From assembly GCA_018655015.1 (NCBI GenBank), contig JABIKK010000013.1, positions 44,071 through 108,070 of the forward strand: a stretch of 64,000 nucleotides of DNA, written 5' to 3'. The translations under genes were made by a program, and so were the position numbers. Origin of the DNA: Candidatus Woesearchaeota archaeon (GTDB taxonomy: Archaea > Nanobdellota > Nanobdellia > SCGC-AAA011-G17 > UBA489). The notes beneath the pieces were generated by a model. The model searched no databases. It was not told where the DNA came from and saw only the letters and a program-made list of their open reading frames with translations. The first letter of the stretch is position 1, and each line of letters starts with the position of its first letter. This document shows positions 4,193 through 27,584 of this stretch, one piece after another.

Positions 4193-7192
4193 TTAAGTTT
4201 TAACAATCTCCACTTCTAACTTGCCCGATCTAAACATATAAAATAACATCAATGCAAGTATTGCAAGAACCCAACTAAACATACCAAATACAGGACCTTT
4301 AACAGAAGGTTCCAAACTACAATCAACTCTTTCTAATGGATCAACTGAACAAACTCCAGTAATACAAGAGTTACAATTTCTAGTTCTCTCGCCATTCTCA
4401 CAATCAGTCCAAGCTCCACAAACCCATGCGTATCCTCCACCTAAGGAAGAACAGCTTGGTTCTACAACATCAGGATAATTCTTAACATCGCAAATATCAG
4501 CTACACAAGTTCCAAAATCAGGATTACAAGATTCGCCACTAGCACATTGAACTTCATTACTTAATTCATTACAACCATTACCATCATAATCACCACAGAA
4601 AGCAACTCCTACCGAAGTACACACTGCCGTGCCCCTAACACAATAAGAAGAACAACCGTCTCCACTTCCAGAACCACTCATTCCTTCAAACAAACAAGTA
4701 TCAGTACAACCATCACCACTAACAGTGTTTCCATCATCACATTGTTCGCCAGGATCAATATTACTATCTCCACAATAGCTGTCTGTAGCAGTAACAGTTA
4801 ACAAATCACTAGGAGGTGCAATTCCGCCACCAAAGTTATAGCCCTTGGCTCTCCATCTAGCATCATCAGGATCAGGTCCAGGATTATTATTCTCGGAAGT
4901 CCAATTAGTGGTTCCGGAAGTTCCAGAAACAGTTATTGGACTAGGTTTAACAACTGAAAGTTCTTGAGTATCTTCATTGATAACATCAACATCAAAGACC
5001 AGATTATTACATCGATCATCACCATCTAAATCTAAAGTTAAAACAACATTGTCTCCTCTTTCCGCAGTCAAAGTACTCCACTTAAAGCTAGCACCTTGTA
5101 ATGCAAGAGTACATTCAGAGCTACCCCCACCACCTTGATCACCAGTTTCTAAACAAGTATTCCTATCATTTGAATCAATATCACAAGCATTACCACAAGG
5201 ATCTCCAGTAGTTGAACCAGTACTTCCATCTTCATTATCTTGAGAGTTTTCACAATGTTCAACATCATAATCGACACCATTAACATTCACAGATTTACCT
5301 GCACAATCTGCATCATCTACACAAGCATAAGTTGAAACATTTCCTTCTGGATTAGATAAAGTATTAACATCTATACAAGTTCCAAAAGAGCCGTAGTTAG
5401 GTGTAATTGCACAATTATCAAGAGCATCTTCAATTCCATCCCCATCTGTATCAACAAAAGGTTCTATCTTACAGAATTCATCACAGCCATCCCCATTAAT
5501 ATTATTTCCATCATCACATTCTTCCGCACCTTCTTGAACACCGTCACCACATTCTCCAACACTTCCAGGCTCTAAATATTCACAACATAATTTATTGGAA
5601 AAATAACTACAATCTGCAGCATGAACATTATAATTTCCACCGTTTCCATCACCAAAGGAAAGTAAACATTCTTTTGCGCCACAATCAGAACTTCCAGCAA
5701 CTGTGTCACACTGAACTTTATCATAACAAACTTTTTGATAATATCCCTTCGGAGGTAATTCACTATCTGTTGATTCGGGAGCATAAATATGTCCTCCTCC
5801 AATCAAAGTCCCAGTAGCATGACCCTCAGTTCCGTTTCCAGCCAAGGTACTAACATCATTACCATTTGCAACCCTAATTGCATCATTCCAAGAATCCGCA
5901 ATAAATAAATTTCCAAATGCATCTAAATCTACACCTCTAACATGTGAAAATTTAGCACTCAAAAGTGGACCATCAACAAAGCCAGTTGTTCCATCACCTG
6001 CAAAATCACTTATTGTAGATCCAGCAACATCTATTTTCTTTATCTTTTGATTATTAGTATCAGCAACATATAATGAGTCTGAAGCAATATCATAAGTTAA
6101 TGCATAAGGTGCAGTGAAACCCGCTCCATAAACAGAACCGCCAACTCCTCCAGCATAATATGAAACTCCAAAACTGACCATGTCTAAACTCTTAATCCGA
6201 TTATTATCTTTATCTGCAATATAAACTAAATTCTCAGAAGGATTGTAACTAACACCAGTAGGATTGCTAAACTTAGCTTCGGGCCCAATAACTCCAGCCA
6301 AATCACCTTCAACACCACAAGTACCTGCAATTGTTGTAACGGCTCCATCAGCCAAACCGACTTGTCTAATACAGTGATTACCCGTATCTGCAACAATTAA
6401 ATTCCCAGAAGGACCAACCGTAATTCCAGTAGGTTGATTAAATCTAGCAGCGCCAGAAATTCCATCGCTTGTCCCACTTGTACCACAAGCCCCTGCAAAG
6501 GCTCCAGAAACACTCCCATCATTCAAGAACACCCTTCTAATACAATGGTTATCTCTATCTGCAACATAAAAATAATCTCCAACTAAAACATCTCTAACTA
6601 AAACTAATCCTGCAGGATAATTAAACTTAGCAGTTGTAGCTCCACCAGGAGTAGTTCCACTTGTACCACAAGTTCCACTAAAATGTTCGGCCAGACCATT
6701 ACCACCAATCTCCCTTATACAATGACTCATTGCATCCGTAACATAAGCAGTTGTAAAACTATTTGTGTCGACAACCGTTTCAATCCCATTGGGTTCATAA
6801 AATGTTGAAGAAATACTTAACCCATTTGAAATATACGCAATTAAATTAGAATTATCAGCATAGCAACTTCTCGTAGGCCCATCAACTCTTAAACTAAATG
6901 ATAACTCGGCACAATAATCCACACTTTCTCCAGAACCAATCATAGAAATATGAGAATTATTTTTCAAAAATAAACCAACAACATCTTTATCGCCACAAGC
7001 CCCTGCAACACTCTCTTCAACAACCATACCCGTTACACTTCCAGGCCCTAAAGAACTAACAACATCTGCAACAGAAGGAGAACTTAAATCATCAATATTA
7101 AATGCCAGAAATGATGCAAATATAACTAAAAACGCTGGAAATAATATACGATGCTCTTCTCTCATCAAAACAACCTCTTCAATACAATTCAA
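4193..7192 (-). CDS. Large secreted/cell-surface protein with NHL repeats and Cys-rich CxxxCDDGNxxxGDGC repeats, C-terminal TM anchor
   Basis: N-terminal signal peptide. Repeated 'YVADxxNHCIRRV/NHCIRQV' NHL-type beta-propeller blades. Multiple 'CDDGN..GDGC' cysteine-rich repeats. Hydrophobic C-terminal segment (VFGMFSWVLAILALMLFYMF). Promoter-like AACATTTATAAG at 7205-7216 suggests the true start may be M10 (7165). Confidence 0.7.
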   Translation of the reverse strand: MNCIEEVVLMREEHRILFPAFLVIFASFLAFNIDDLSSPSVADVVSSLGPGSVTGMVVEESVAGACGDKDVVGLFLKNNSHISMIGSGESVDYCAELSFSLRVDGPTRSCYADNSNLIAYISNGLSISSTFYEPNGIETVVDTNSFTTAYVTDAMSHCIREIGGNGLAEHFSGTCGTSGTTPGGATTAKFNYPAGLVLVRDVLVGDYFYVADRDNHCIRRVFLNDGSVSGAFAGACGTSGTSDGISGAARFNQPTGITVGPSGNLIVADTGNHCIRQVGLADGAVTTIAGTCGVEGDLAGVIGPEAKFSNPTGVSYNPSENLVYIADKDNNRIKSLDMVSFGVSYYAGGVGGSVYGAGFTAPYALTYDIASDSLYVADTNNQKIKKIDVAGSTISDFAGDGTTGFVDGPLLSAKFSHVRGVDLDAFGNLFIADSWNDAIRVANGNDVSTLAGNGTEGHATGTLIGGGHIYAPESTDSELPPKGYYQKVCYDKVQCDTVAGSSDCGAKECLLSFGDGNGGNYNVHAADCSYFSNKLCCEYLEPGSVGECGDGVQEGAEECDDGNNINGDGCDEFCKIEPFVDTDGDGIEDALDNCAITPNYGSFGTCIDVNTLSNPEGNVSTYACVDDADCAGKSVNVNGVDYDVEHCENSQDNEDGSTGSTTGDPCGNACDIDSNDRNTCLETGDQGGGGSSECTLALQGASFKWSTLTAERGDNVVLTLDLDGDDRCNNLVFDVDVINEDTQELSVVKPSPITVSGTSGTTNWTSENNNPGPDPDDARWRAKGYNFGGGIAPPSDLLTVTATDSYCGDSNIDPGEQCDDGNTVSGDGCTDTCLFEGMSGSGSGDGCSSYCVRGTAVCTSVGVAFCGDYDGNGCNELSNEVQCASGESCNPDFGTCVADICDVKNYPDVVEPSCSSLGGGYAWVCGAWTDCENGERTRNCNSCITGVCSVDPLERVDCSLEPSVKGPVFGMFSWVLAILALMLFYMFRSGKLEVEIVKT

Positions 7193-16293: not shown

Positions 16294-16410
16294 GAGGACG
16301 ACCATGGCAGCTTGGTTCCACCTGTTCCCATTCCGAACACAGCAAGTTAAGCAAGCTCACGTTCCAAGTTGTACTGCACTTTGTTGTGGGAACCTTGGTT
16401 AGTTGTCCCT
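16294..16410 (+). rRNA. 5S ribosomal RNA (stand-alone, not linked to 16S/23S)
   Basis: Contains the universal 5S core 'CCCATTCCGAACACAGCAAGTTAAGC' and '...GTACTGCAC...GGGAAC'. Terminal helix GGACGAC/GTTGTCC. Confidence 0.85.
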
Positions 16411-17109
16411 TTTATTTTCTAATTTATTTAACAAATCCGCAAATTTAACAGGATTTTTAGAGGGAGTTGCATTGTAACTTTCAACCATCAAATCAAGAAT
16501 ATATTGTTTCATAGGATGTGTTAGAGGAACGTACTTTCTAAAGAGGAAAATATTTCTTCTTCCTGTAATTCCTAAAACCCAGGTGTCATCTTTCAGTCTA
16601 TTGTTCCTCCTCAAACGATTACATGAAATGCCTAGAGAAAAAAGAATTTCACCAATCTCCTTCAAAATTCCATAAGAATTAGAATAAAAATTTACATTCC
16701 TCTTCCATGCATTTTCAGACAGACTGAATCTTAGTCCAACACAACCTTCATCATCGAAAAAAGAACCAATAAATGCAAGCTTAATACCAATGTTAGCTTC
16801 TAGAACTTTTTTTGGAATCTTTATTTTATTACATCCAAACGATTCAAGATAATTAAAAAAAAACTCAATGAGCGCCCTTCTCTGAAACTGCACAAAGGAT
16901 GTACCTGAGTTGACCGTGCCATAAGTAAGGTGAATTTCTCCAAAAATTTCAATAAGATCCTTTTCGAATTGACTAAGCAAAGCCTTACAAGTATTGTTGT
17001 ACCTTGCATATTTAGGACTAATGTGGCCATCTCCACAAAGTTTAGCCAAACATCTTGCAAGAGCGACGTTCATCATAGCGTAATAATGAAAACATGGAAG
17101 ATAAAACAA
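16399..17109 (-). CDS. Free-standing double-motif LAGLIDADG homing endonuclease
   Basis: Two LAGLIDADG-type motifs, 'LAKLCGDGHIS' and 'IGSFFDDEGCV', at the spacing expected for a monomeric two-domain enzyme. The stop overlaps the 3' end of the 5S rRNA antisense. True start is probably M12/M13 (~17076). Confidence 0.75.
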   Translation of the reverse strand: MFYLPCFHYYAMMNVALARCLAKLCGDGHISPKYARYNNTCKALLSQFEKDLIEIFGEIHLTYGTVNSGTSFVQFQRRALIEFFFNYLESFGCNKIKIPKKVLEANIGIKLAFIGSFFDDEGCVGLRFSLSENAWKRNVNFYSNSYGILKEIGEILFSLGISCNRLRRNNRLKDDTWVLGITGRRNIFLFRKYVPLTHPMKQYILDLMVESYNATPSKNPVKFADLLNKLENKRDN

Positions 17110-21704: not shown

Positions 21705-21781
21705 TCTTTTGATTAAAGAATTAAATCAAAAAAGATTAAATCACAAGATTTAAGAAAGAATATTCTAAATTTAAATTACCT

Positions 21782-21865
21782 GTGGGAGTGCCGGAGCGGT
21801 CAAACGGGATGGCCTCAAGAGCCATTGGCTTAGTGCCTACTAAGGTTCGAATCCTTGCTCCCACA
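21782..21865 (+). tRNA. tRNA-Leu (anticodon CAA), type II
   Basis: Manual cloverleaf: acceptor GTGGGAG/CTCCCAC, D-arm CCG-GAGCGGTCAAA-CGG, anticodon loop CTCAAGA, T-loop TTCGAAT, long variable arm. Confidence 0.85.
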
Positions 21866-21875
21866 TTATTAAAAA

Positions 21876-22712
21876 ATGATAGGATACATTATCGGATTTT
21901 TTGCACTGTTAAGCGTGTATAATGAAATTAACTTTTTCCTAATTAAACGAAAAATAACTGGACCAATCACTGCAATGAAAGGTGCTGAATCATTTTCAAA
22001 AAAAAGAGGTAAAAAGGTTGCACTATTAATACATGGTTTTTCTAGTAGCCCAAAAGAATTTAGAGAGCTTGGAAACTTATTAGCAAGAAACAATATATCT
22101 GTTTATGTACCACTTCTACCAGGACATGGAACATCCCCAGAAAGACTTGCAGTTACTAAACATTTCCAATGGATAGAATCAGTCAATGATTCAATCAAAA
22201 AATTAGAAAAAGAATACAAAGAAATCTATTTAGTTGGTAACTCCTTGGGCGGAAATCTTGCTATTATATCTGCAAACAAATCAAAAAAAATCAAAGGAAT
22301 CGTTACTCTTGGTTCTCCAATAATATTCAGAAAAGAAAAAATAAAAAGATACTTATTTTTCCCAATAATTAGAAGGATAAAACTATTTCAAAAAAAGAAA
22401 TATGACATAGACATTACTGAAATTAACAAAAGAAGAACAACCTATCCAATGGTTGCATTAAGGTCCATCCACCAGGGCTTAAAAATAGTAATTTTGTCTA
22501 AAAAGTGCATAAAGAATATAAAAACACCAATATTGGTGATGCAGACTGAAAATGACAAATTAACTATTGAAGAAAGTGGAGAATACATTATAAACCATAT
22601 TAAGTCTAAAAGAAAAGAGCTAATCACAATTCCAGAATCATATCATGTATTCATACTAGATAAATATAGAAAACAAGTAAATAAAAAGATTCTAGGATTC
22701 ATAAAAAAATGA
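21876..22712 (+). CDS. Alpha/beta-hydrolase (esterase/lipase family)
   Basis: Nucleophile elbow 'GNSLGG' and 'LLIHGFSSS' oxyanion region. Confidence 0.7.
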   Translation: MIGYIIGFFALLSVYNEINFFLIKRKITGPITAMKGAESFSKKRGKKVALLIHGFSSSPKEFRELGNLLARNNISVYVPLLPGHGTSPERLAVTKHFQWIESVNDSIKKLEKEYKEIYLVGNSLGGNLAIISANKSKKIKGIVTLGSPIIFRKEKIKRYLFFPIIRRIKLFQKKKYDIDITEINKRRTTYPMVALRSIHQGLKIVILSKKCIKNIKTPILVMQTENDKLTIEESGEYIINHIKSKRKELITIPESYHVFILDKYRKQVNKKILGFIKK

Positions 22713-23419
22713 AAGTACTAACAAACACAAAAGGAAAAAGATTTTTTTGGAAATCTGGAGACCTACACACAGAAGATGGAATCATAAAAGAATCAGATAT
22801 AAGAAATAGATCCAATAAAATAAAGAGCAATATAGAAAAAGAATTAATTAAATTTGATGCAAAATTCCAAGATCAATTGGATGACTTAACGCCAGGTCCA
22901 GCAACAGTAAATGCAAAAGACGCTGGAACAATAATTGCACAAACAGGAATTAATTCCAAAAGTAAAATTGTAGATGCGGGTTCTGGTTCAGGATTCTTAG
23001 CAGCATATTTAGCAAACATCACAAACAACGTAACAACCTATGAAAAAAACACTGGGCATTTCAAACTAGCAAAAGGCAACTTAAAAAAACTCGCGCCAAA
23101 AGTAAAAATAAAAAACAAAGACGTCTCCGAAGGAATCGACGAAACAAATTTAGACTTAATAACCTTAGATCTTCCAGACCCAGAAAATATCCTAAAACAT
23201 GCAGAATCATCGTTAAATTCAGGTGCTTATTTAGTCTGCTATCTCCCAAGTATAACTCAAGTGCAAAGCATAATAAAAGCCTCAAAAAAATACAATTTCA
23301 TCTTAGAAAAAGCCATAGAAACAATAGAAAGAGAATGGGTCGTCCAAGATAGAATATGTCGCCCAAAACATCAAATTCTAGGCCATACAGCATTCTTAGT
23401 GTTCTTTAGAAAGTATTAA
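22709..23419 (+). CDS. trmI: tRNA (adenine-N1)-methyltransferase TrmI/Gcd14-like
   Basis: SAM motif 'VDAGSGSGFLAAYLA' and 'PGPATVNAKDAGTIIAQTGI' N-domain typical of TrmI. Confidence 0.6.
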   Translation: MKVLTNTKGKRFFWKSGDLHTEDGIIKESDIRNRSNKIKSNIEKELIKFDAKFQDQLDDLTPGPATVNAKDAGTIIAQTGINSKSKIVDAGSGSGFLAAYLANITNNVTTYEKNTGHFKLAKGNLKKLAPKVKIKNKDVSEGIDETNLDLITLDLPDPENILKHAESSLNSGAYLVCYLPSITQVQSIIKASKKYNFILEKAIETIEREWVVQDRICRPKHQILGHTAFLVFFRKY

Positions 23420-23427
23420 AAACCATT

Positions 23428-23471
23428 GTACTAGATAACTTGTATTGCTTATTCTACGTATTATCTAGTAC
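23428..23471. terminator. Perfect 11-bp inverted repeat hairpin (GTACTAGATAA-N22-TTATCTAGTAC) downstream of trmI
   Basis: Directly visible in sequence; followed by palindromic AAACCCT-ATTTTAAAAG-GGTTT (23484-23505) containing a TATA-like core for the next gene. Confidence 0.4.
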
Positions 23472-23517
23472 TAAACTAATAGTAAACCCTATTTTAAAAG
23501 GGTTTCGGAGATAAAAA

Positions 23518-25320
23518 ATGAAAAAAATAATGAAAAAATATGTCGTAGACACATCTGCGATAATTGAAAAAATTCCTACTACTCAGATTAAAGAGAAGAA
23601 GATTGCTGAAGGAGACATATTAATCCCCCATGCAGTAATAGCGGAGCTTGAAAATCAGGCAAATCGGGGAAAAGAAATTGGTCTAATTGGCCTTGAAGAA
23701 ATACAAGAAATTAGAGAACTTTGTAAAAAAAATAAAGTCACACTCAATTTCGTTGGAGAAAGACCATCTGAACATCAGATAAGACATGCTAAATCTGGAG
23801 AAATAGATGCATACATAAGAGAATTAGCTTCTCAAAACGATGCAACATTAATCACCGCAGATCTAGTACAATCTAAATCTGGAAAGGCACTTGGAATAGA
23901 AGTAGATTACATTGAAATTGTAAAATACCAAGAAGAATTAACTTTAGAAAAGTATATTGACGATAAAACAATGTCTTTACACCTAAAAGAAAATAACTAT
24001 GTTATGGCAAAAAAAGGAGCTCCAGGTAACTGGAATTTAGAAAAAGTTAGTAAAACTAAAATAACTCCTGAACAAATGCAAAAATATGCACAAGAGATTA
24101 TTGAAAAAACAAGATTAGATAAAAAATCTTACACTGAAATTTCAAAGAGATGTACAACGGTTGTTCAATATCAAAATTTAAGAATTGTAATTGTAAAACC
24201 TCCTGTTTCAAACGGATGGGAAATAACAATCGTGCACCCTTTAACTAAGTTAGATCTAGAAGACTATAAACTTCCAGAAGAATTAGCAGAGAGGATTGAA
24301 CATAAAGCAAGAGGAATAATCATCTGTGGAGAAACAGGATCAGGTAAAACAACCCTAGCACAGGCTATAGCTGAATGGTATGTAAATGACAATAGAATTG
24401 TAAAAACAGTAGAATCTCCTAGAGACCTACAATTACCCGATTCAGTCACACAGTACTCCAAGAACTTTACTAGTGAGGGAGAGATACATGATATCTTATT
24501 CCTTTCAAGACCAGATAATATCTTGTTTGATGAAATGAGGTCTTCGCCAGATTTTGCATTATACACTGATCTAAGATTAGCTGGATCGAATATGATCGGA
24601 GTTCTACATGCCGCACAAGCTATTGATGCAGTTCAAAGATTTATTGCACGTCTTGACACCGGGGTTATTCCAAATGTTGTAGACACAATCATCTTCATGG
24701 AAGCAGGTAAAATAGAAAAAGTTCTAACATTGAAAATGATGGTTAAGGTTCCAAGTGGAATGACTGAGTCAGACCTAGCAAGACCTATAATCGAAGTAAG
24801 AGACTATCAAACAAATAAATTAGATTATGAGATCTATAGTTATGGGGAACAAACAGTTGTAATTCCAATTTCATCTGATACAAAAAAATCAGGTGCAATG
24901 AAACTTGCTGAAAATGAAATTGTAAAATACTTCTTAAAATACGCCCCATCAGTCAAGGCAGAAGTTGTCAGCAGTTCAAAGGCAGTTGTTTACATTCCAG
25001 AAGATAGAATTGCAAAGGTTATTGGTAGTGCAGGAAAGAACATTGAAAAATGTGAAAAGGATCTAGGTATTGGAATAGATATTAGAGAACTAAAAATAGA
25101 GAAAAATAATGTCAAATATTCTCTAAAAGAAGATAAGAAAAACCTAGTCTTCTACTCTGATCCTGGGCAAACCCTTGAAATCTATACAAATGGCAAATTT
25201 ATCCTTTCCGCAATTACAAGTAAAAAAGGCGAAATTAAGATAAATAAAAAGAGTGTACAAGGAAGAGACATTCTAAAGGTTCTTAGCAAAAAGAATGGGG
25301 AAATAGAAGTCAAGGCCTAA
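23518..25320 (+). CDS. PIN-domain / PhoH-like ATPase / KH-domain protein (conserved archaeal)
   Basis: N-terminal PIN (VVDTSAII...D), Walker A 'GETGSGKTTLAQAIAEW', C-terminal KH 'VIGSAGKNIEKCEKDLGIGIDI'. Confidence 0.75.
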   Translation: MKKIMKKYVVDTSAIIEKIPTTQIKEKKIAEGDILIPHAVIAELENQANRGKEIGLIGLEEIQEIRELCKKNKVTLNFVGERPSEHQIRHAKSGEIDAYIRELASQNDATLITADLVQSKSGKALGIEVDYIEIVKYQEELTLEKYIDDKTMSLHLKENNYVMAKKGAPGNWNLEKVSKTKITPEQMQKYAQEIIEKTRLDKKSYTEISKRCTTVVQYQNLRIVIVKPPVSNGWEITIVHPLTKLDLEDYKLPEELAERIEHKARGIIICGETGSGKTTLAQAIAEWYVNDNRIVKTVESPRDLQLPDSVTQYSKNFTSEGEIHDILFLSRPDNILFDEMRSSPDFALYTDLRLAGSNMIGVLHAAQAIDAVQRFIARLDTGVIPNVVDTIIFMEAGKIEKVLTLKMMVKVPSGMTESDLARPIIEVRDYQTNKLDYEIYSYGEQTVVIPISSDTKKSGAMKLAENEIVKYFLKYAPSVKAEVVSSSKAVVYIPEDRIAKVIGSAGKNIEKCEKDLGIGIDIRELKIEKNNVKYSLKEDKKNLVFYSDPGQTLEIYTNGKFILSAITSKKGEIKINKKSVQGRDILKVLSKKNGEIEVKA

Positions 25321-25322
25321 AA

Positions 25323-26303
25323 ATGGACAAACCCTATAGTCTCGTAGTCCTCGGAGGAGGCAGTGGATGCTTTTCGATACTAAGAGGTCTAAAAAAATTC
25401 TCTAGTCTAGCCACCATAACTTCTATTTTTACAATTGCAGATGACGGTGGCTCAAGTGGAGTTCTAAGAAGCGAATTTGGAATACTCCCTCCTGGAGATT
25501 TAAGAAGACATATAGCGGCATTATCAGAATCATCTAAAAAAATGGTGGAACTTCTTAACTTCAGATTCAAAGATAGTCCATCTGTAAAAGATCATTCACT
25601 GGGTAATTTAATTTACACAGCCCTAGCAAAAATCACAGGTTCTGACGAAGGCGCAATAAGAGAAATGAATAATATCTTTCAAACAAATGAAAGTTTAGTT
25701 TTGCCCGCATCATTAGATAAAGTTAAACTAATCGCAGAATACGAAAATGGAATTTCTCTCAGAGGAGAAACAAATATTGATAATTTAAACAGTAATAAGC
25801 ATGGGGCAATAACCAAAGTTCATTTAGAGCCCGAAGCAACAGCATACTTGCCAACAGTTGAAGTTCTCAAAAGAGCAACACACATAATACTCAGTGCAGG
25901 AGATCTTTATACAAGCATAGTTCCAATACTTCTAGTAAATAACATACCTGAAGCAATAAGAGATTCAAATGCAAAAATTATTTACGTATCAAATTTAATG
26001 ACAAAAATGGGAGAAACAGATAACTTCAAAACAGAAAATTTCATAGAAATATTAAACAAATATCTAAAATACAAAAAGGTAGATTGCGTAATTGTAAATA
26101 AGAAAACCCCTTCTGAGGAATTAATAAAGGAATACAAGGAAGAAGGTTCAGAAATAGTAACTTACAGTAAAGATAGTCTAAACAACTTAGGAACAAAAGT
26201 AATTGAGGAAAACCTAATATTGGAAAAAGAAATTCTTAGACACAATCCAAAAAATACGGCATTAGCAATCATAAAGTACGTTCTAGACTCTTCAACGTCA
26301 TAA
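25323..26303 (+). CDS. CofD/YvcK-family (UPF0052) protein
   Basis: 'VVLGGGSG' and 'ADDGGSSG' glycine-rich motifs characteristic of the 2-phospho-L-lactate transferase/YvcK fold. Confidence 0.65.
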   Translation: MDKPYSLVVLGGGSGCFSILRGLKKFSSLATITSIFTIADDGGSSGVLRSEFGILPPGDLRRHIAALSESSKKMVELLNFRFKDSPSVKDHSLGNLIYTALAKITGSDEGAIREMNNIFQTNESLVLPASLDKVKLIAEYENGISLRGETNIDNLNSNKHGAITKVHLEPEATAYLPTVEVLKRATHIILSAGDLYTSIVPILLVNNIPEAIRDSNAKIIYVSNLMTKMGETDNFKTENFIEILNKYLKYKKVDCVIVNKKTPSEELIKEYKEEGSEIVTYSKDSLNNLGTKVIEENLILEKEILRHNPKNTALAIIKYVLDSSTS

Positions 26304-26363
26304 TAAGAAAATATTCCTGGAATTTCTTATACAAACTTATAAAATAACAGTCCAATAAGGTTA

Positions 26364-27029
26364 ATGATCAATTCTCCAGAGAAAATTAATAATCCATTAT
26401 TTTTAGAATTATACGGAGCCTTACTTGGAGACGGTTGGATTGGAAGATATATCAATAAAAAGAAGGACAAAGAGTATCCATACTATCTTCTAGGCATTAG
26501 TGGAGATTCTAGATTAGATAAAGATTATTTTGATTTTCTTTCCCATACTATAGGGAAATTATTTGGCATTCATCCAACAATAAGAAAGAAAAAGTTAGAA
26601 AATACTATTGAACTAAGAGCCTACAATGAAAAAATTGTAAAGTACCTAAACTCAGAACTTAATTTTCCAATTGGTAAAAAGGGAGAGTTCAAAATTAAAA
26701 GAGAGATAAACAATGAATGGGGAAAAGTTAAACATGTCATAAGAGGTATATTCGACACAGACGGGTCAATATATTTCGATAAAACTCCAGTCGGACGACC
26801 TTACCCTACAATCTCAATCAGCATAACTTCCAGGCCCGCCCTAAAACAAATTAGAGATAATCTTTTAAAACAGGGTTTTAAGGTACAAAATAGAAAAGAT
26901 CGACCTGAGATAAAATTAAAAGGTAGAAAACAATTAGAAAAATGGATGAAAGAAATAGGATGTAGAAATAACAGACATTTTTCAAAATACAAGAAATTCA
27001 TACAAGGGCCCGTAGCTCAGCTTGGATAG
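26364..27029 (+). CDS. Free-standing double-motif LAGLIDADG homing endonuclease
   Basis: Motifs 'LYGALLGDGWIG' and 'IRGIFDTDGSIY'. The last 8 codons overlap the 5' 24 nt of tRNA-Arg(CCU). Confidence 0.75.
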   Translation: MINSPEKINNPLFLELYGALLGDGWIGRYINKKKDKEYPYYLLGISGDSRLDKDYFDFLSHTIGKLFGIHPTIRKKKLENTIELRAYNEKIVKYLNSELNFPIGKKGEFKIKREINNEWGKVKHVIRGIFDTDGSIYFDKTPVGRPYPTISISITSRPALKQIRDNLLKQGFKVQNRKDRPEIKLKGRKQLEKWMKEIGCRNNRHFSKYKKFIQGPVAQLG

Positions 27030-27080
27030 AGCATTTCCCTCCTAAGGAAAGGGTCGCAGGTTCAAATCCTGTCGGGTCCG
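27006..27080 (+). tRNA. tRNA-Arg (anticodon CCU)
   Basis: Manual cloverleaf: acceptor GGGCCCG/CGGGTCC, D-arm GCTC-AGCTTGGATA-GAGC, anticodon stem TTTCC/GGAAA with loop CTCCTAA, T-loop TTCAAAT. Confidence 0.85.
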
Positions 27081-27407
27081 CTAATAAACTTCTATTCTAC
27101 CTTTCCCCAATATATAATGAATTTTCGCATAAGTTGTTCTGCCTTCCCCCTTATCTCGGAACAAAACAAAATGGTAATCTGGAAGAGTTAATTTAGGATT
27201 GTCAGCACTTTTACGGCAACTATCTAGAAAAATACCATCAAAATGATCTGCGTTATCCTCAAGCAAGCCCATAGCTTCTTCAGCAGTGAGAACCTGGCCA
27301 AAAAACAAAGAACCATTCTTTCTTCCAGAATGAGTGTGCTCTGCAAAAGAAACTGCTAAATCCTCGAGAACCTTCAAACTGTCAGTATTAAGAGATCTTC
27401 TAACCAT
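27081..27407 (-). CDS. Hypothetical protein (orphan ORF between two tRNA genes)
   Basis: 108-aa ORF, slightly GC-richer, no recognisable motif. Confidence 0.35.
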   Translation of the reverse strand: MVRRSLNTDSLKVLEDLAVSFAEHTHSGRKNGSLFFGQVLTAEEAMGLLEDNADHFDGIFLDSCRKSADNPKLTLPDYHFVLFRDKGEGRTTYAKIHYILGKGRIEVY

Positions 27408-27511
27408 TAAATATCACTACAAAACAACCACTACTCCAAGATTTAAAAGAATTATACAACTAGAAGCTTGAGAAATCTTTAAAAACAACATCGCGCCTTT
27501 TTTGGACAGAA

Positions 27512-27583
27512 GCGCTGGTAGTGTAATGGCTAGCATAGGAGCCTTCCAAGCTCTTGATCCGGGTTCGAATCCCGGCCGGCGCA
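27512..27583 (+). tRNA. tRNA-Gly (anticodon UCC)
   Basis: Manual cloverleaf: acceptor GCGCTGG/CCGGCGC, anticodon stem GGAGC/GCTCT with loop CTTCCAA, T-arm CCGGG-TTCGAAT-CCCGG. Confidence 0.85.
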
Positions 27584-27584
27584 C

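Follow-up and report, generated by a model that had tools for sequence, protein, structure and literature searches.

A LAGLIDADG endonuclease gene that terminates inside tRNA-Arg(CCU) in a Woesearchaeota archaeon, and its probable place among free-standing, tRNA-fused homing cassettes

Introduction

Homing endonucleases are thought to survive hidden in self-splicing introns or inteins, and for archaeal LAGLIDADG genes the classic home is the rRNA intron. In a 64,000-nt stretch of DNA from a Candidatus Woesearchaeota archaeon (contig JABIKK010000013.1; the whole of this stretch is hereafter called the window), an initial annotation had pointed to a LAGLIDADG ORF that runs into a tRNA-Arg(CCU) gene and stops there. 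How does an endonuclease gene come to end within a conserved tRNA, and does the arrangement reflect an accident, an intron, a host gene or a mobile element? The answer that we favour, and consider probable, is that the window ORF is a member of a group of free-standing LAGLIDADG homing-endonuclease cassettes that are fused to the 5' end of tRNA-Arg(CCU) in DPANN archaea.

Results

The window ORF has the sequence and predicted fold of a LAGLIDADG endonuclease

The ORF begins 60 nt past the CofD stop codon and finishes in the tRNA (Table 1), and Pfam matched it to LAGLIDADG_3 (PF14528) with 35.5 bits against a cut-off of 22.5. Both motifs quoted in the initial annotation, LYGALLGDGWIG and IRGIFDTDGSIY, were found in the protein, their ends reading LLGD23GW and FDTD133GS and each closing on a catalytic Asp. 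D23 and D133 were invariant in alignments of 17 and 59 homologous sequences; loss of these acidic residues would have refuted the annotation, and it was not seen. The AF2 model of the protein (pLDDT 93.5, pTM 0.90) displayed a doubled, pseudo-symmetric alpha-beta-beta-alpha-beta-beta-alpha fold with a disordered tail (residues 219-221, pLDDT <50). Using Foldseek, the top matches of this model were LAGLIDADG endonucleases and maturases, with a probability of 1.00 for PI-PfuI, I-AniI, I-SmaMI and I-Tsp061I; the best were PI-PfuI, I-AniI and I-Tsp061I (TM 0.69/0.74 for the last), and the bI3 and I-AniI maturases were matched too. I-Tsp061I (2DCH) was also the best sequence match in the PDB. No Hint/intein splicing domain was detected in the ORF with Pfam profiles, which found LAGLIDADG domains only, and with its start after the CofD stop and its end in the tRNA an intein-encoded endonuclease was ruled out. 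Together these data support the identity given in the initial annotation at the level of sequence and predicted fold, while cleavage activity is inferred, there being no cleavage assay.

The identical protein sequence is present on 9 contigs from several sources. Comparison of the gene with that of the relative L081 gave a dN/dS of 0.092, the same as for neighbouring genes, and this short form is under purifying selection.

Table 1. Coordinates of the features discussed, numbered from the first nucleotide of the window.
Feature	Position	Strand	Basis or remark
5S rRNA	16294..16411	+	Rfam
Second LAGLIDADG gene	16399..17109	-	3' end overlaps 5S rRNA 3' end
tRNA-Leu(CAA), ancestral upstream cluster partner	21781..21866	+	ARAGORN
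Recently exchanged block (promoter, endonuclease gene, tRNA-Arg), window vs sister lineage L206/L207	26336..27093	.	nt identity, dS; edges approximate
TATA-like box TTATAAAA, putative promoter	26337..26344	+	read from sequence; 27-20 nt before ATG
LAGLIDADG homing endonuclease gene, single-chain, short form, 221 aa	26364..27029	+	ATG start, own stop codon absent
tRNA-Arg(CCU), complete, intron-free	27006..27081	+	ARAGORN; Rfam 27006..27080, 64.5 bits
ORF/tRNA overlap, 24 nt	27006..27029	+	read from sequence
Orphan 108-aa ORF, context only, outside cassette	27081..27407	-	stop touches last tRNA-Arg base
tRNA-Gly(UCC), ancestral downstream partner of tRNA-Arg(CCU)	27512..27584	+	ARAGORN, Rfam

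The overlap with tRNA-Arg(CCU) is conserved across the family

Nucleotides 1-24 of tRNA-Arg(CCU) encode seven sense codons (GPVAQLG) followed by the TAG of the D-loop GGATAG, at 27027-27029, and the last eight codons of the ORF are tRNA sequence, exactly as first described. The tRNA itself is 100% identical in the sister lineage L206. A homologous ORF stops within the tRNA in 34 of 39 tRNA-Arg(CCU)-linked DPANN loci, always in the tRNA-reading frame (18 TAG, 15 TAA and 1 TGA), and the stops are drawn from invariant tRNA bases, namely the D-loop GGATAG, the anticodon-loop CCTAA and U8-A9-G10. Many homologues share both the frame and the stop of the window overlap, which is kept in L081 and L206. 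Among 228 homologues, mostly of ~330 aa, many terminate in ...VAQLG or ...VAQSG, and homologues from CPR bacteria terminate in tRNA-Ser(CGA), at the D-loop TCATAA. The overlap is a conserved family trait and not an accident, and the earlier description of an endonuclease physically fused to a conserved RNA gene extends well beyond this locus.

Long forms carry a displaced tRNA fragment and a promoter-like box

In a Leu-Arg-Gly cluster the full cassette occupies the space after tRNA-Leu and before tRNA-Arg. Its order, which is demonstrated, begins with a displaced 5' fragment of the tRNA (nt 1-26) and continues with a BRE/TATA box and a ~330-aa gene that lacks a stop codon and encodes an N-terminal HTH followed by two LAGLIDADG domains; a complete tRNA closes it. 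In long-form loci the distance of the fragment from the ATG is fixed (-54 +/- 2); 13 of 33 loci show <=4 mismatches to the consensus and 18 show <=6, a level that 0 of 3,787 control windows reach. A TATA-like box of the TTTAAATA type begins at -29 in 20 of 29 long-form loci and within -40..-24 in 24, compared with only two of the 29 in which a suitably placed TATA precedes the tRNA itself. The C-terminal RHLNKI motif was considered as a tRNA TATA box and rejected, its TTTAAA lying 12-18 nt from the tRNA and a proper box being found in those two loci only. Judged from sequence, CPR bacteria hold a sister branch of the cassette family that is fused to tRNA-Ser(CGA); tRNA-Ser 5' fragments occupy the equivalent place in L070 and L072, and L071 has a mirrored arrangement at the tRNA 3' end. 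L071 belongs to a convergent 3'-end branch together with L041, L047, L057, L063 and L066, and L077 to a branch at tRNA-Gly(UCC). The CPR rows were left out of the alignment used for the long-form structure model, and all sequences came from metagenomes or MAGs. A Fisher test linked variant D arms with intact long-form genes (p=0.009, or 0.025 with one lineage collapsed), uncorrected for phylogeny.

The window copy is a short form. It has neither the HTH domain nor the displaced gene-end copy that stands opposite the intact host gene in 18 of 33 long-form loci and in the CPR loci; local alignment found no tRNA remnant upstream of the window ORF, and the fragment is likewise missing in L081. Several clades consist of ~220-aa forms, which are also the rule in remoter tRNA-linked subfamilies. 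Upstream of the window gene is the TATA-like box TTATAAAA, a putative promoter of a leaderless endonuclease-tRNA transcript whose promoter function is inferred.

Two alternatives bear directly on this architecture. In AT-rich genomes an ORF can by chance run a short way into a tRNA gene, and the initial annotation had itself named a sequencing error at the stop codon as grounds for refutation. Yet independent assemblies show the overlap at 34 of 39 homologous loci, and such an error is therefore excluded; with the tRNA-reading frame kept without exception, the overlap conserved in L081 and L206, and the same protein on 9 contigs of several sources, chance or artefact is already refuted and we give it practically no credence. 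The other alternative, an intron or split tRNA, had also been raised at the outset and would place the ORF in a BHB or group I intron of an interrupted tRNA, with the upstream fragment as its 5' exon. It draws on the classic rRNA-intron home of archaeal LAGLIDADG genes, on the presence of the fragment in long-form cassettes and on L036, where the intron mode of ARAGORN linked the fragment with the downstream 3' part. We nevertheless regard it as very improbable and reject it for the window, where ARAGORN run with and without introns, Rfam and acceptor-pairing checks found no intron, and where Rfam, both at the gathering cut-off and at E<=1, returned no intron family and no group I intron. The downstream tRNA is complete with a normal tRNA score, the acceptor strand of the fragment is unpaired with the downstream 3' acceptor (e.g. 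GCGCCCG vs CTCGGGC in L018), the ORF occupies the entire interval, and the window has no upstream fragment that could be an exon.

The surrounding tRNA cluster and a second LAGLIDADG gene

Comparative genomics of the tRNA cluster, as the initial annotation had proposed, showed a Leu-cassette-Arg-Gly order in relatives with both empty and filled alleles, the uninvaded Leu-Arg spacers being 5-20 nt. In the window four genes (21876-26303) now part tRNA-Leu(CAA) from the endonuclease gene. Adjacency of tRNA-Arg and tRNA-Gly is found in many relatives, and tRNA-Gly(UCC) has its own box, TTTAAAAA, at 27478-27485 with a conserved upstream block. The orphan ORF was correctly placed between these two tRNAs in the initial annotation; it lies, however, on the minus strand and is not part of the element. 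It remains familyless, with no match in Pfam, PHROG, NCBIfam, PADLOC or PDB, and among 1.84 billion representatives it has a single genuine homologue, the 60% identical P0121, which holds the same position in L206/L207 (dN/dS 0.32, window vs L206/L207). In L081 the orphan is absent and the Arg-Gly spacer is 45 nt. Searches for a decayed endonuclease or a tRNA relic using tblastn, hmmsearch and local alignment were all negative. The orphan represents an insertion of its own, specific to the lineage, at a junction where the two tRNAs were ancestrally adjacent.

The second LAGLIDADG gene overlaps the 5S rRNA in antisense by 13 nt, 3' end on 3' end, and its family adjoins 5S rRNA in other genomes as well. 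No pairwise similarity of the two LAGLIDADG proteins was detectable (BLASTP E=2.2), which bears out the claim of two unrelated genes that each overlap a stable-RNA gene, by 24 and 13 nt respectively. A 5S rRNA fragment was sought upstream of the second gene and only a 10-nt inverted match was found.

Signs of mobility in the family, and recent exchange of the window block

Comparison of a filled locus (L193) with an empty one (L199) revealed orthologous flanks and a clean 1,024-nt insertion, with the tRNAs differing at positions 3 and 17 only. The LAGLIDADG ORF is the sole gene of this insert, and an integrase-mediated integrative element was accordingly rejected. We also examined low-GC metagenome contigs picked solely by a tRNA-Arg(CCU) pattern; ~40 loci had enough upstream sequence to be evaluated, of which three carry the endonuclease gene and most are empty. 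This frequency carries a bias, since only canonical D arms satisfied the scan pattern. Presence or absence of the cassette is thus demonstrably polymorphic. Broken gene copies were found in L013, L025, L054 and L059, and the L206/L207 copy has a nonsense codon that is present in two assemblies. No relative that would indicate a viral vector was found in IMG/VR.

Between the window and L206/L207 a block that includes the TATA-like box, the endonuclease gene and tRNA-Arg is 96-99% identical in nucleotides, against 83-88% for CofD and 62-68% for the orphan spacer. Likewise, dS was 0.084 for the endonuclease gene compared with 0.855 for CofD, 0.44 for the GltB-like gene, 0.63 for ORF408 and 1.08 for the orphan. 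By these sequence comparisons, the gene and tRNA block was recently transferred between lineages, although homologous recombination of the ordinary kind, with syntenic genomes as partners, could account for this. Together with the filled and empty alleles, the sporadic occurrence and the pseudogenes, the transfer supports the initial suggestion of an invasion targeted at RNA genes. Against L081, in contrast, dS of the endonuclease gene equals that of the flanks (about 0.94), which indicates long vertical co-inheritance; this and the strong purifying selection are compatible with a host-beneficial role as well. Furthermore, without the upstream fragment and the HTH domain the window copy may no longer home autonomously.

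These last observations leave two further readings to be weighed against a mobile endonuclease. WhiA and maturases derive from LAGLIDADG enzymes, and the window protein could be a domesticated host protein, for example a factor that serves the tRNA cluster by binding DNA or RNA, with the overlap reflecting a compact, vertically inherited operon. The housekeeping-like dN/dS, the dS shared with the flanks against L081 and an arrangement conserved in many DPANN genomes would all suit such a protein, as would the weak match of CPR members to WhiA LAGLIDADG models and the maturases among the Foldseek matches. In WhiA, however, the catalytic Asp residues are lost, whereas here both are invariant, and a WhiA-like factor with degenerate domains and a C-terminal HTH was rejected, the HTH of long forms being N-terminal and the window protein having none. 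Most sampled tRNA-Arg(CCU) loci lack the gene, closely related alleles are empty or filled, pseudogenes occur (including the nonsense mutation in the nearest relative), dS of the endonuclease gene against L206/L207 is 5-10 times below the flanks, and the cassette bears the relic of a displaced tRNA. Domestication therefore appears unlikely to us. We think it quite unlikely, too, that the family is or was mobile but the window short form is an immobilised dead end, transferred by ordinary recombination and conserved for reasons unrelated to nuclease activity. This would fit the missing fragment and HTH domain, the four genes that separate the copy from tRNA-Leu and the canonical D arm of its tRNA, and the window, L081 and L206 have the same synteny, such that flanking homology alone could mediate exchange. 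The exchanged block nonetheless matches promoter, gene and tRNA and does not have arbitrary boundaries, both catalytic residues and the low dN/dS are retained, and the spread of ~220-aa forms means that the short form is not obviously defective.

Discussion

In the homing-cassette explanation that we prefer, the enzyme would cut uninvaded tRNA-Arg(CCU) genes and the break would be repaired off the invaded allele, with the tRNA sequences that flank the cassette acting as portable homology arms, so that the cassette would enter between tRNA-Leu and tRNA-Arg and leave a working tRNA behind. Because of the overlap, the nuclease gene could not be parted from the copy of the target that it carries, which may resist cleavage, and transcription from the cassette promoter would yield the tRNA as the 3' end of the mRNA for the endonuclease. 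The cleavage target, the immunity and the co-transcription are inferences, and the window tRNA, having a canonical D arm, is a potential self-target if the enzyme recognises the D arm.

It is possible, though doubtful, that the overlap is itself functional, serving as a gene drive with a built-in antidote and as a switch between mutually exclusive mRNA and tRNA products, and that the displaced tRNA fragment is a portable left homology arm. The nuclease gene would then be joined for good to a form of its tRNA target that resists cleavage, and recombination would never part the drive from its immunity. Nuclease mRNA and tRNA would be alternative products of a single leaderless transcript, in which an RNase P cut at the tRNA 5' end would remove the only stop codon, an inferred step through which tRNA maturation would throttle a toxic nuclease. 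The fragment, as a left homology arm, would allow entry into any tRNA-Arg(CCU) gene whatever the sequence around it, and would thereby account for the occurrence of one design in both DPANN archaea and CPR bacteria.

We place the window gene with the free-standing homing endonucleases, a known kind, and the cassettes can be set against several established systems. Integrative elements insert into tRNA genes and restore the gene with a carried tRNA segment, leaving attL/attR direct repeats; as in the cassettes, a partial-tRNA direct repeat flanks the insert and an intact tRNA is regenerated, but the cassettes have no integrase, their repeat is the 5' part of the tRNA, and the insert is only ~1 kb with a LAGLIDADG nuclease as its sole gene. 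SegB of phage T4 is a free-standing GIY-YIG homing endonuclease that acts in a tRNA gene cluster. It resembles the cassettes in lying beside tRNA genes, in spreading by double-strand-break repair with co-conversion of flanking markers, and in a donor immunity thought to rest on target sequence differences; it differs in its GIY-YIG enzyme, its phage genome, the lack of an ORF-tRNA overlap and of a displaced tRNA fragment, and in not being tied to a single tRNA species across the whole family. SegB is a subject of PMC13096335, and PMC2988022 deals with T4 elements.

Another close parallel comes from fungal mitochondria, where free-standing LAGLIDADG ORFs lie between cob or atp6 and C-terminal duplicates of these genes (PMC6279837). 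There, as in the full cassette, the LAGLIDADG gene is part of neither an intron nor an intein; it abuts a conserved host gene that is intact, and a displaced partial end of that gene lies across the endonuclease gene, so that the host gene stays functional. In the cassettes, by contrast, the host gene is a tRNA and not protein-coding, the 5' end is duplicated (~26 nt), invariant tRNA nucleotides supply the stop of the ORF, there is a putative archaeal promoter of their own, and the hosts are DPANN archaea and CPR bacteria instead of organelles. Archaeal intron-encoded endonucleases (I-DmoI, I-Tsp061I, I-PorI) and the LAGLIDADG genes of DPANN rRNA group I introns share the fold, the host groups and the targeting of a conserved stable-RNA gene; all 39 introns in PMC6125680 reside in rRNA genes. 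The cassettes differ from these in having no intron and in targeting a tRNA gene, not rRNA, and they keep the RNA gene intact by duplication or replacement of its end where intron-encoded endonucleases rely on splicing.

Our search of the full-text literature, which left most subscription journals uncovered and is not proof, brought up no account of LAGLIDADG genes fused to a tRNA in DPANN or CPR, and the tRNA-carrying cassettes are apparently a widespread and undescribed mobile family. Annotation pipelines will truncate or miss such genes or mis-call the tRNA relics. The enzymes represent a natural library of compact nucleases for which recognition of tRNA genes is probable by inference, and a coupling of nuclease translation to RNase P processing is possible and directly testable. 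Beside the intron and the intein, the family offers a third harmless way into an essential conserved gene, in which the end of a tRNA is replaced by the element's own copy and even the stop codon is taken from invariant tRNA bases. The design recurs in DPANN and CPR with different tRNAs (Arg-CCU, Ser-CGA and, it appears, Gly-UCC and others). These are the two large radiations of ultra-small symbionts, and the presence of the design in both points to a class of mobile elements, so far unrecognised, by which their tRNA clusters are shaped.

An endonuclease gene that ends inside tRNA-Arg(CCU)

The source of this DNA is a DPANN archaeon, in which a LAGLIDADG endonuclease ORF overlaps the tRNA-Arg(CCU) gene by 24 nt. 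Its TAG stop codon (27027-27029) is the TAG within GGATAG of the tRNA D-loop, and the final seven residues, GPVAQLG, are encoded by tRNA sequence. The initial annotation had described the ORF, the overlap and the neighbouring genes correctly, apart from the strand of the orphan ORF, which is minus. HOF78_03655 of a Candidatus Woesearchaeota MAG has the same protein sequence (100% identity), and the product was found on 9 contigs from several sources.

Features of the endonuclease loci and their stable-RNA genes
Feature	Position	Strand	Remarks
LAGLIDADG endonuclease ORF	26364..27029	+	221 aa; motifs LLGDGW and FDTDGS
tRNA-Arg(CCU), complete	27006..27081	+	ARAGORN and Rfam agree
Orphan ORF, 108 aa	27081..27407	-	between tRNA-Arg and tRNA-Gly
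tRNA-Gly(UCC)	27512..27584	+	downstream of tRNA-Arg
Second LAGLIDADG gene	16399..17109	-	antisense overlap of 13 nt with 3′ end of 5S rRNA (16294..16411)

The ORF matches Pfam LAGLIDADG_3 with 35.5 bits (cut-off 22.5). AlphaFold, given 59 homologues, predicts a doubled alpha-beta-beta-alpha-beta-beta-alpha fold (pLDDT 93.5, pTM 0.90), with the tRNA-encoded C-terminal tail disordered, and the model's top Foldseek matches in the PDB were PI-PfuI, bI3 maturase, I-AniI, I-SmaMI and the archaeal intron enzyme I-Tsp061I, which is also the best PDB match by sequence. The catalytic Asp of both motifs, D23 and D133, are invariant across the family; loss of the acidic motif residues, named in the initial annotation as refuting evidence, is not seen. 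By sequence and predicted fold, the product is a bona fide LAGLIDADG enzyme, with cleavage activity inferred.

Overlap with tRNA genes across the family

A protein search returned 228 homologues, 40-50% identical, in Woesearchaeota, Pacearchaeota and Nanoarchaeota. The majority are ~330 aa (long form) with an additional N-terminal domain of ~110 aa, and in many the C-terminus is ...PVAQLG or ...VAQSG, the tRNA 5′ end translated in frame. For an overlap survey we retrieved 80 loci from species-representative genomes (individual comparison loci carry L numbers). Among them, 39 DPANN loci place the gene immediately 5′ of a tRNA gene, always tRNA-Arg(CCU), and 34 of the 39 ORFs stop within it. This recurrence, and the identical product on 9 contigs, exclude an artefact, and the ORF truly ends inside the tRNA as first proposed. 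The stops are the TAG of D-loop GGATAG (overlap 24-26 nt), the TAA of anticodon loop CCTAA (39-43 nt) or U8-A9-G10 (10-11 nt), and on sequence evidence they come from invariant tRNA nucleotides and the overlap is a trait of the family.

Remote CPR homologues (26-33% identity; Saccharibacteria, Moranbacteria, Liptonbacteria and Doudnabacteria) lie upstream of tRNA-Ser, with most ORFs ending in tRNA-Ser(CGA), commonly at D-loop TCATAA with a 24 nt overlap. Further archaeal branches run into different tRNAs, often intron-containing, and certain archaeal members are convergent with the tRNA and cover its 3′ end antisense. One branch (L042, L050, L051, L052, L055 and L061) runs into long-intron tRNAs with a CTTATAT anticodon loop, which may be tRNA-Ile(UAU), ARAGORN typing of intron-containing genes being unreliable. 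At L041, L046, L047, L053, L057, L063, L066 and L071, ~220-aa members are convergent with intron-containing tRNAs, and tails GEPEEI and GGPAAI, each followed by the stop, correspond to tRNA 3′ acceptor and T-arm sequence read in antisense. Upstream of the L071 ORF there is an antisense tRNA 3′ fragment, including CCA, as a mirror image of the Arg arrangement. L077 (5575-6655) has an uninvaded Leu(CAA)-Arg(CCU) pair, 19 nt apart, and a different family member between tRNA-Arg and an intron-containing tRNA-Gly(UCC), ending exactly at the tRNA-Gly 5′ end; this looks like a branch retargeted to tRNA-Gly.

Architecture and expression of the cassette

Long-form genes are preceded by a tRNA 5′ fragment with consensus GCGCCCGTAGCTCAGCCTGGATAGAG (tRNA nt 1-26) and aaaaTTTAAATA directly after; the position of the fragment relative to the ATG is constant (-54 ± 2). 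A 20-nt D-arm consensus was matched at the fragment site with ≤4 mismatches in 13/33 loci and ≤6 in 18/33, compared with ≤6 in 0/3,787 control windows from the same loci. Linked tRNAs usually have a D arm unlike the fragment's (GTGGCGCAAyTGGATAGCGC and other variants). Pairing of the fragment acceptor strand with the downstream tRNA 3′ strand was looked for but not found, and the fragment is therefore not a 5′ exon. With the tRNA-Arg complete and no Rfam intron, an intron or split tRNA at this gene, which the initial annotation had suggested checking, is excluded.

A TATA-like octamer starts at -29 in 20/29 loci and at -40 to -24 in 24/29; a start at about -29 from the ATG is the spacing expected of leaderless archaeal mRNA. 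Because a properly spaced box precedes the tRNA itself in just 2/29 loci, we infer that the endonuclease transcript most likely continues through the tRNA, which would form its 3′ end. The long-form N-terminal domain is predicted to be HTH-like (AF2 pLDDT 92.5; three-helix bundle plus wing; weak HTH Pfam matches).

CPR cassettes have a tRNA-Ser 5′ fragment in the corresponding place, clear in L070 and degenerate in L072 and L069. At L072 (about 5530-5586) the degenerate fragment (GGTTGACT...) is followed 17 nt later by TAGAAT, which reads like a sigma-70 -35/-10 promoter of the endonuclease gene, and a relic may thus have been recruited as promoter. Several short-form genes (~220 aa, without the HTH domain) have, where the tRNA fragment would be, a conserved TTGTCACGCACG right before the TATA box (L026 about 5940-5988, also upstream of the ORF in L041 and L047), which may represent an operator or the remnant of a different target.

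Genomic site and mobility

The cassette site lies between tRNA-Leu and tRNA-Arg(CCU) in a conserved Leu-Arg-Gly(UCC) cluster. Scanning a metagenome collection with a tRNA-Arg(CCU)-specific pattern blind to the endonuclease gave 120 loci. The gene was present in only 3 of ~40 low-GC loci with sufficient upstream sequence (L105, L193 and L200), an estimate biased low because the pattern demanded a canonical D arm; many have Leu-Arg spacing of only 5-20 nt. One orthologous pair, L193 and L199 (flanks 79-90% identical), is distinguished by a clean insertion of 1,024 nt, and their tRNA-Arg genes are the same except at positions 3 and 17, both in the 5′ part. An identical degenerate fragment in L193 and L200 indicates that the fragment travels with the cassette. 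Gene copies are broken in L013, L025, L054 and L059. At L009 (915-2024) the ORF extends into a decayed tRNA-Arg-like copy, and an intact tRNA-Arg(CCU) with canonical D arm comes directly after it, giving two tRNA copies at one cassette.

The second LAGLIDADG gene is unrelated in sequence to the first. Its family is small (12 homologues) and linked to 5S elsewhere too. In L210 the gene shares a strand with 5S and stops 22 nt before it, and in L209 the two are convergent, 3 nt apart; no 5S was found near the family gene in L208. In L210 (2562-3605, Nanoarchaeota) the 5S-linked gene, 5S rRNA and a tRNA are followed by an Arg-family gene (330 aa) that extends into a tRNA. Several endonuclease families appear to have a hotspot in the stable-RNA cluster.

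Maintenance, transfer and decay in the window lineage

We compared three syntenic relatives, the L081/L082 lineage and L206/L207 (two samples), the latter being the closer lineage. The L081/L082 protein is 85% identical to the window protein, and the gene's dN/dS (0.092) and dS (0.94) against L081 are indistinguishable from those of its neighbours (0.055-0.118 and 0.95-1.08), which indicates a functional gene co-inherited with its flanks over that distance. Against L206/L207, block 26336-27093 (promoter, gene and tRNA-Arg) is 96-99% identical, compared with 83-88% for CofD and 62-68% for the orphan spacer. As dS is 0.084 for the endonuclease and far higher for all flanks (CofD 0.855; GltB-like 0.44; ORF408 0.63; orphan 1.08), exactly the endonuclease-tRNA module was exchanged between lineages recently. 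The L206/L207 gene has a nonsense codon at Tyr29. Maintenance in L081, with transfer and nonsense in L206/L207, is the cycle of invasion, maintenance and decay that homing endonuclease genes are expected to pass through.

The genes for tRNA-Arg and tRNA-Gly were adjacent ancestrally, and in L081 only 45 nt separate them. The orphan ORF fills this gap as a lineage-specific 430-nt stretch that the window shares with L206/L207 alone; their copy (60% aa identity, dN/dS 0.32, dS about 1.1) is the sole real homologue among 1.84 billion representatives. A search for relation to endonucleases or tRNAs found none, and the ORF is outside the cassette. Against that homologue it evolves very fast, and the tRNAs on its two sides show 100% identity in the same comparison. 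The tRNA pair is flanked by an indel hotspot: in the window there is no gap between tRNA-Gly and the stop codon of the GltB-like gene (27584/27585), and L081 (3716-4508) has two extra genes there (DoxX-like, 129 aa; membrane protein, 143 aa). Between tRNA-Leu(CAA) and the endonuclease gene, window 23518-25320 encodes a 600-aa PIN-domain and secretion-type ATPase (PilT-like) protein and a CofD-like gene, an arrangement common to the window, L081 and L207 and not other cassette-bearing genomes.

Discussion

Cassette architecture, the site-specific association of each branch with one tRNA, presence/absence polymorphism, recent module transfer, purifying selection and an intact catalytic apparatus were all observed. 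We propose that the enzyme would cut uninvaded tRNA-Arg(CCU) genes and that repair would copy the cassette, the flanking tRNA sequence on either side acting as homology arms. The host would stay viable through the tRNA copy that the cassette brings, which may resist cleavage, and once RNase P processed the co-transcript, the stop codon would be lost, limiting nuclease synthesis. Variant D arms occur in 27/30 intact long-form loci versus 4/9 short or broken forms (Fisher p 0.009; p = 0.025 with the window lineage collapsed; neither value is corrected for phylogeny). Short introns were seen in linked tRNA-Arg(CCU) of L036, L038, L062, L105 and L007 (D loop, near positions 30/31 or after the anticodon); in L036, L038 and L062 the D arm is canonical and the intron is near the D-arm/anticodon-stem junction. 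Such introns could interrupt a nuclease recognition site, by analogy with the collaborative immunity reported for phage psbA.

Purifying selection and long vertical co-inheritance with L081 would also be expected of a domesticated LAGLIDADG protein that serves the host, the overlap being inherited vertically, but this does not fit all the evidence, since the distribution is sporadic, empty alleles and pseudogenes occur, module dS is low and catalytic residues are retained. The window copy itself could be an immobile relic moved by ordinary recombination. It is a short form without HTH domain or upstream fragment, and four genes separate it from tRNA-Leu(CAA) at 21781; a short form is not necessarily defective, as ~220-aa proteins make up several family clades and are also typical of remoter subfamilies.

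Fungal mitochondria have the closest analogues, LAGLIDADG or GIY-YIG genes that are free-standing and leave the displaced end of the host gene partly duplicated (PMC6279837); phage SegB in the T4 tRNA region, likewise a free-standing endonuclease, is also close. DPANN LAGLIDADG genes have so far been described only in rRNA group I introns (PMC6125680), and full-text searches that covered few subscription journals turned up no account of tRNA-fused cassettes. We regard the element as a variation on a familiar type, a homing endonuclease that enters tRNA genes by replacing one end, its stop codon shared with the tRNA, in both DPANN and CPR.
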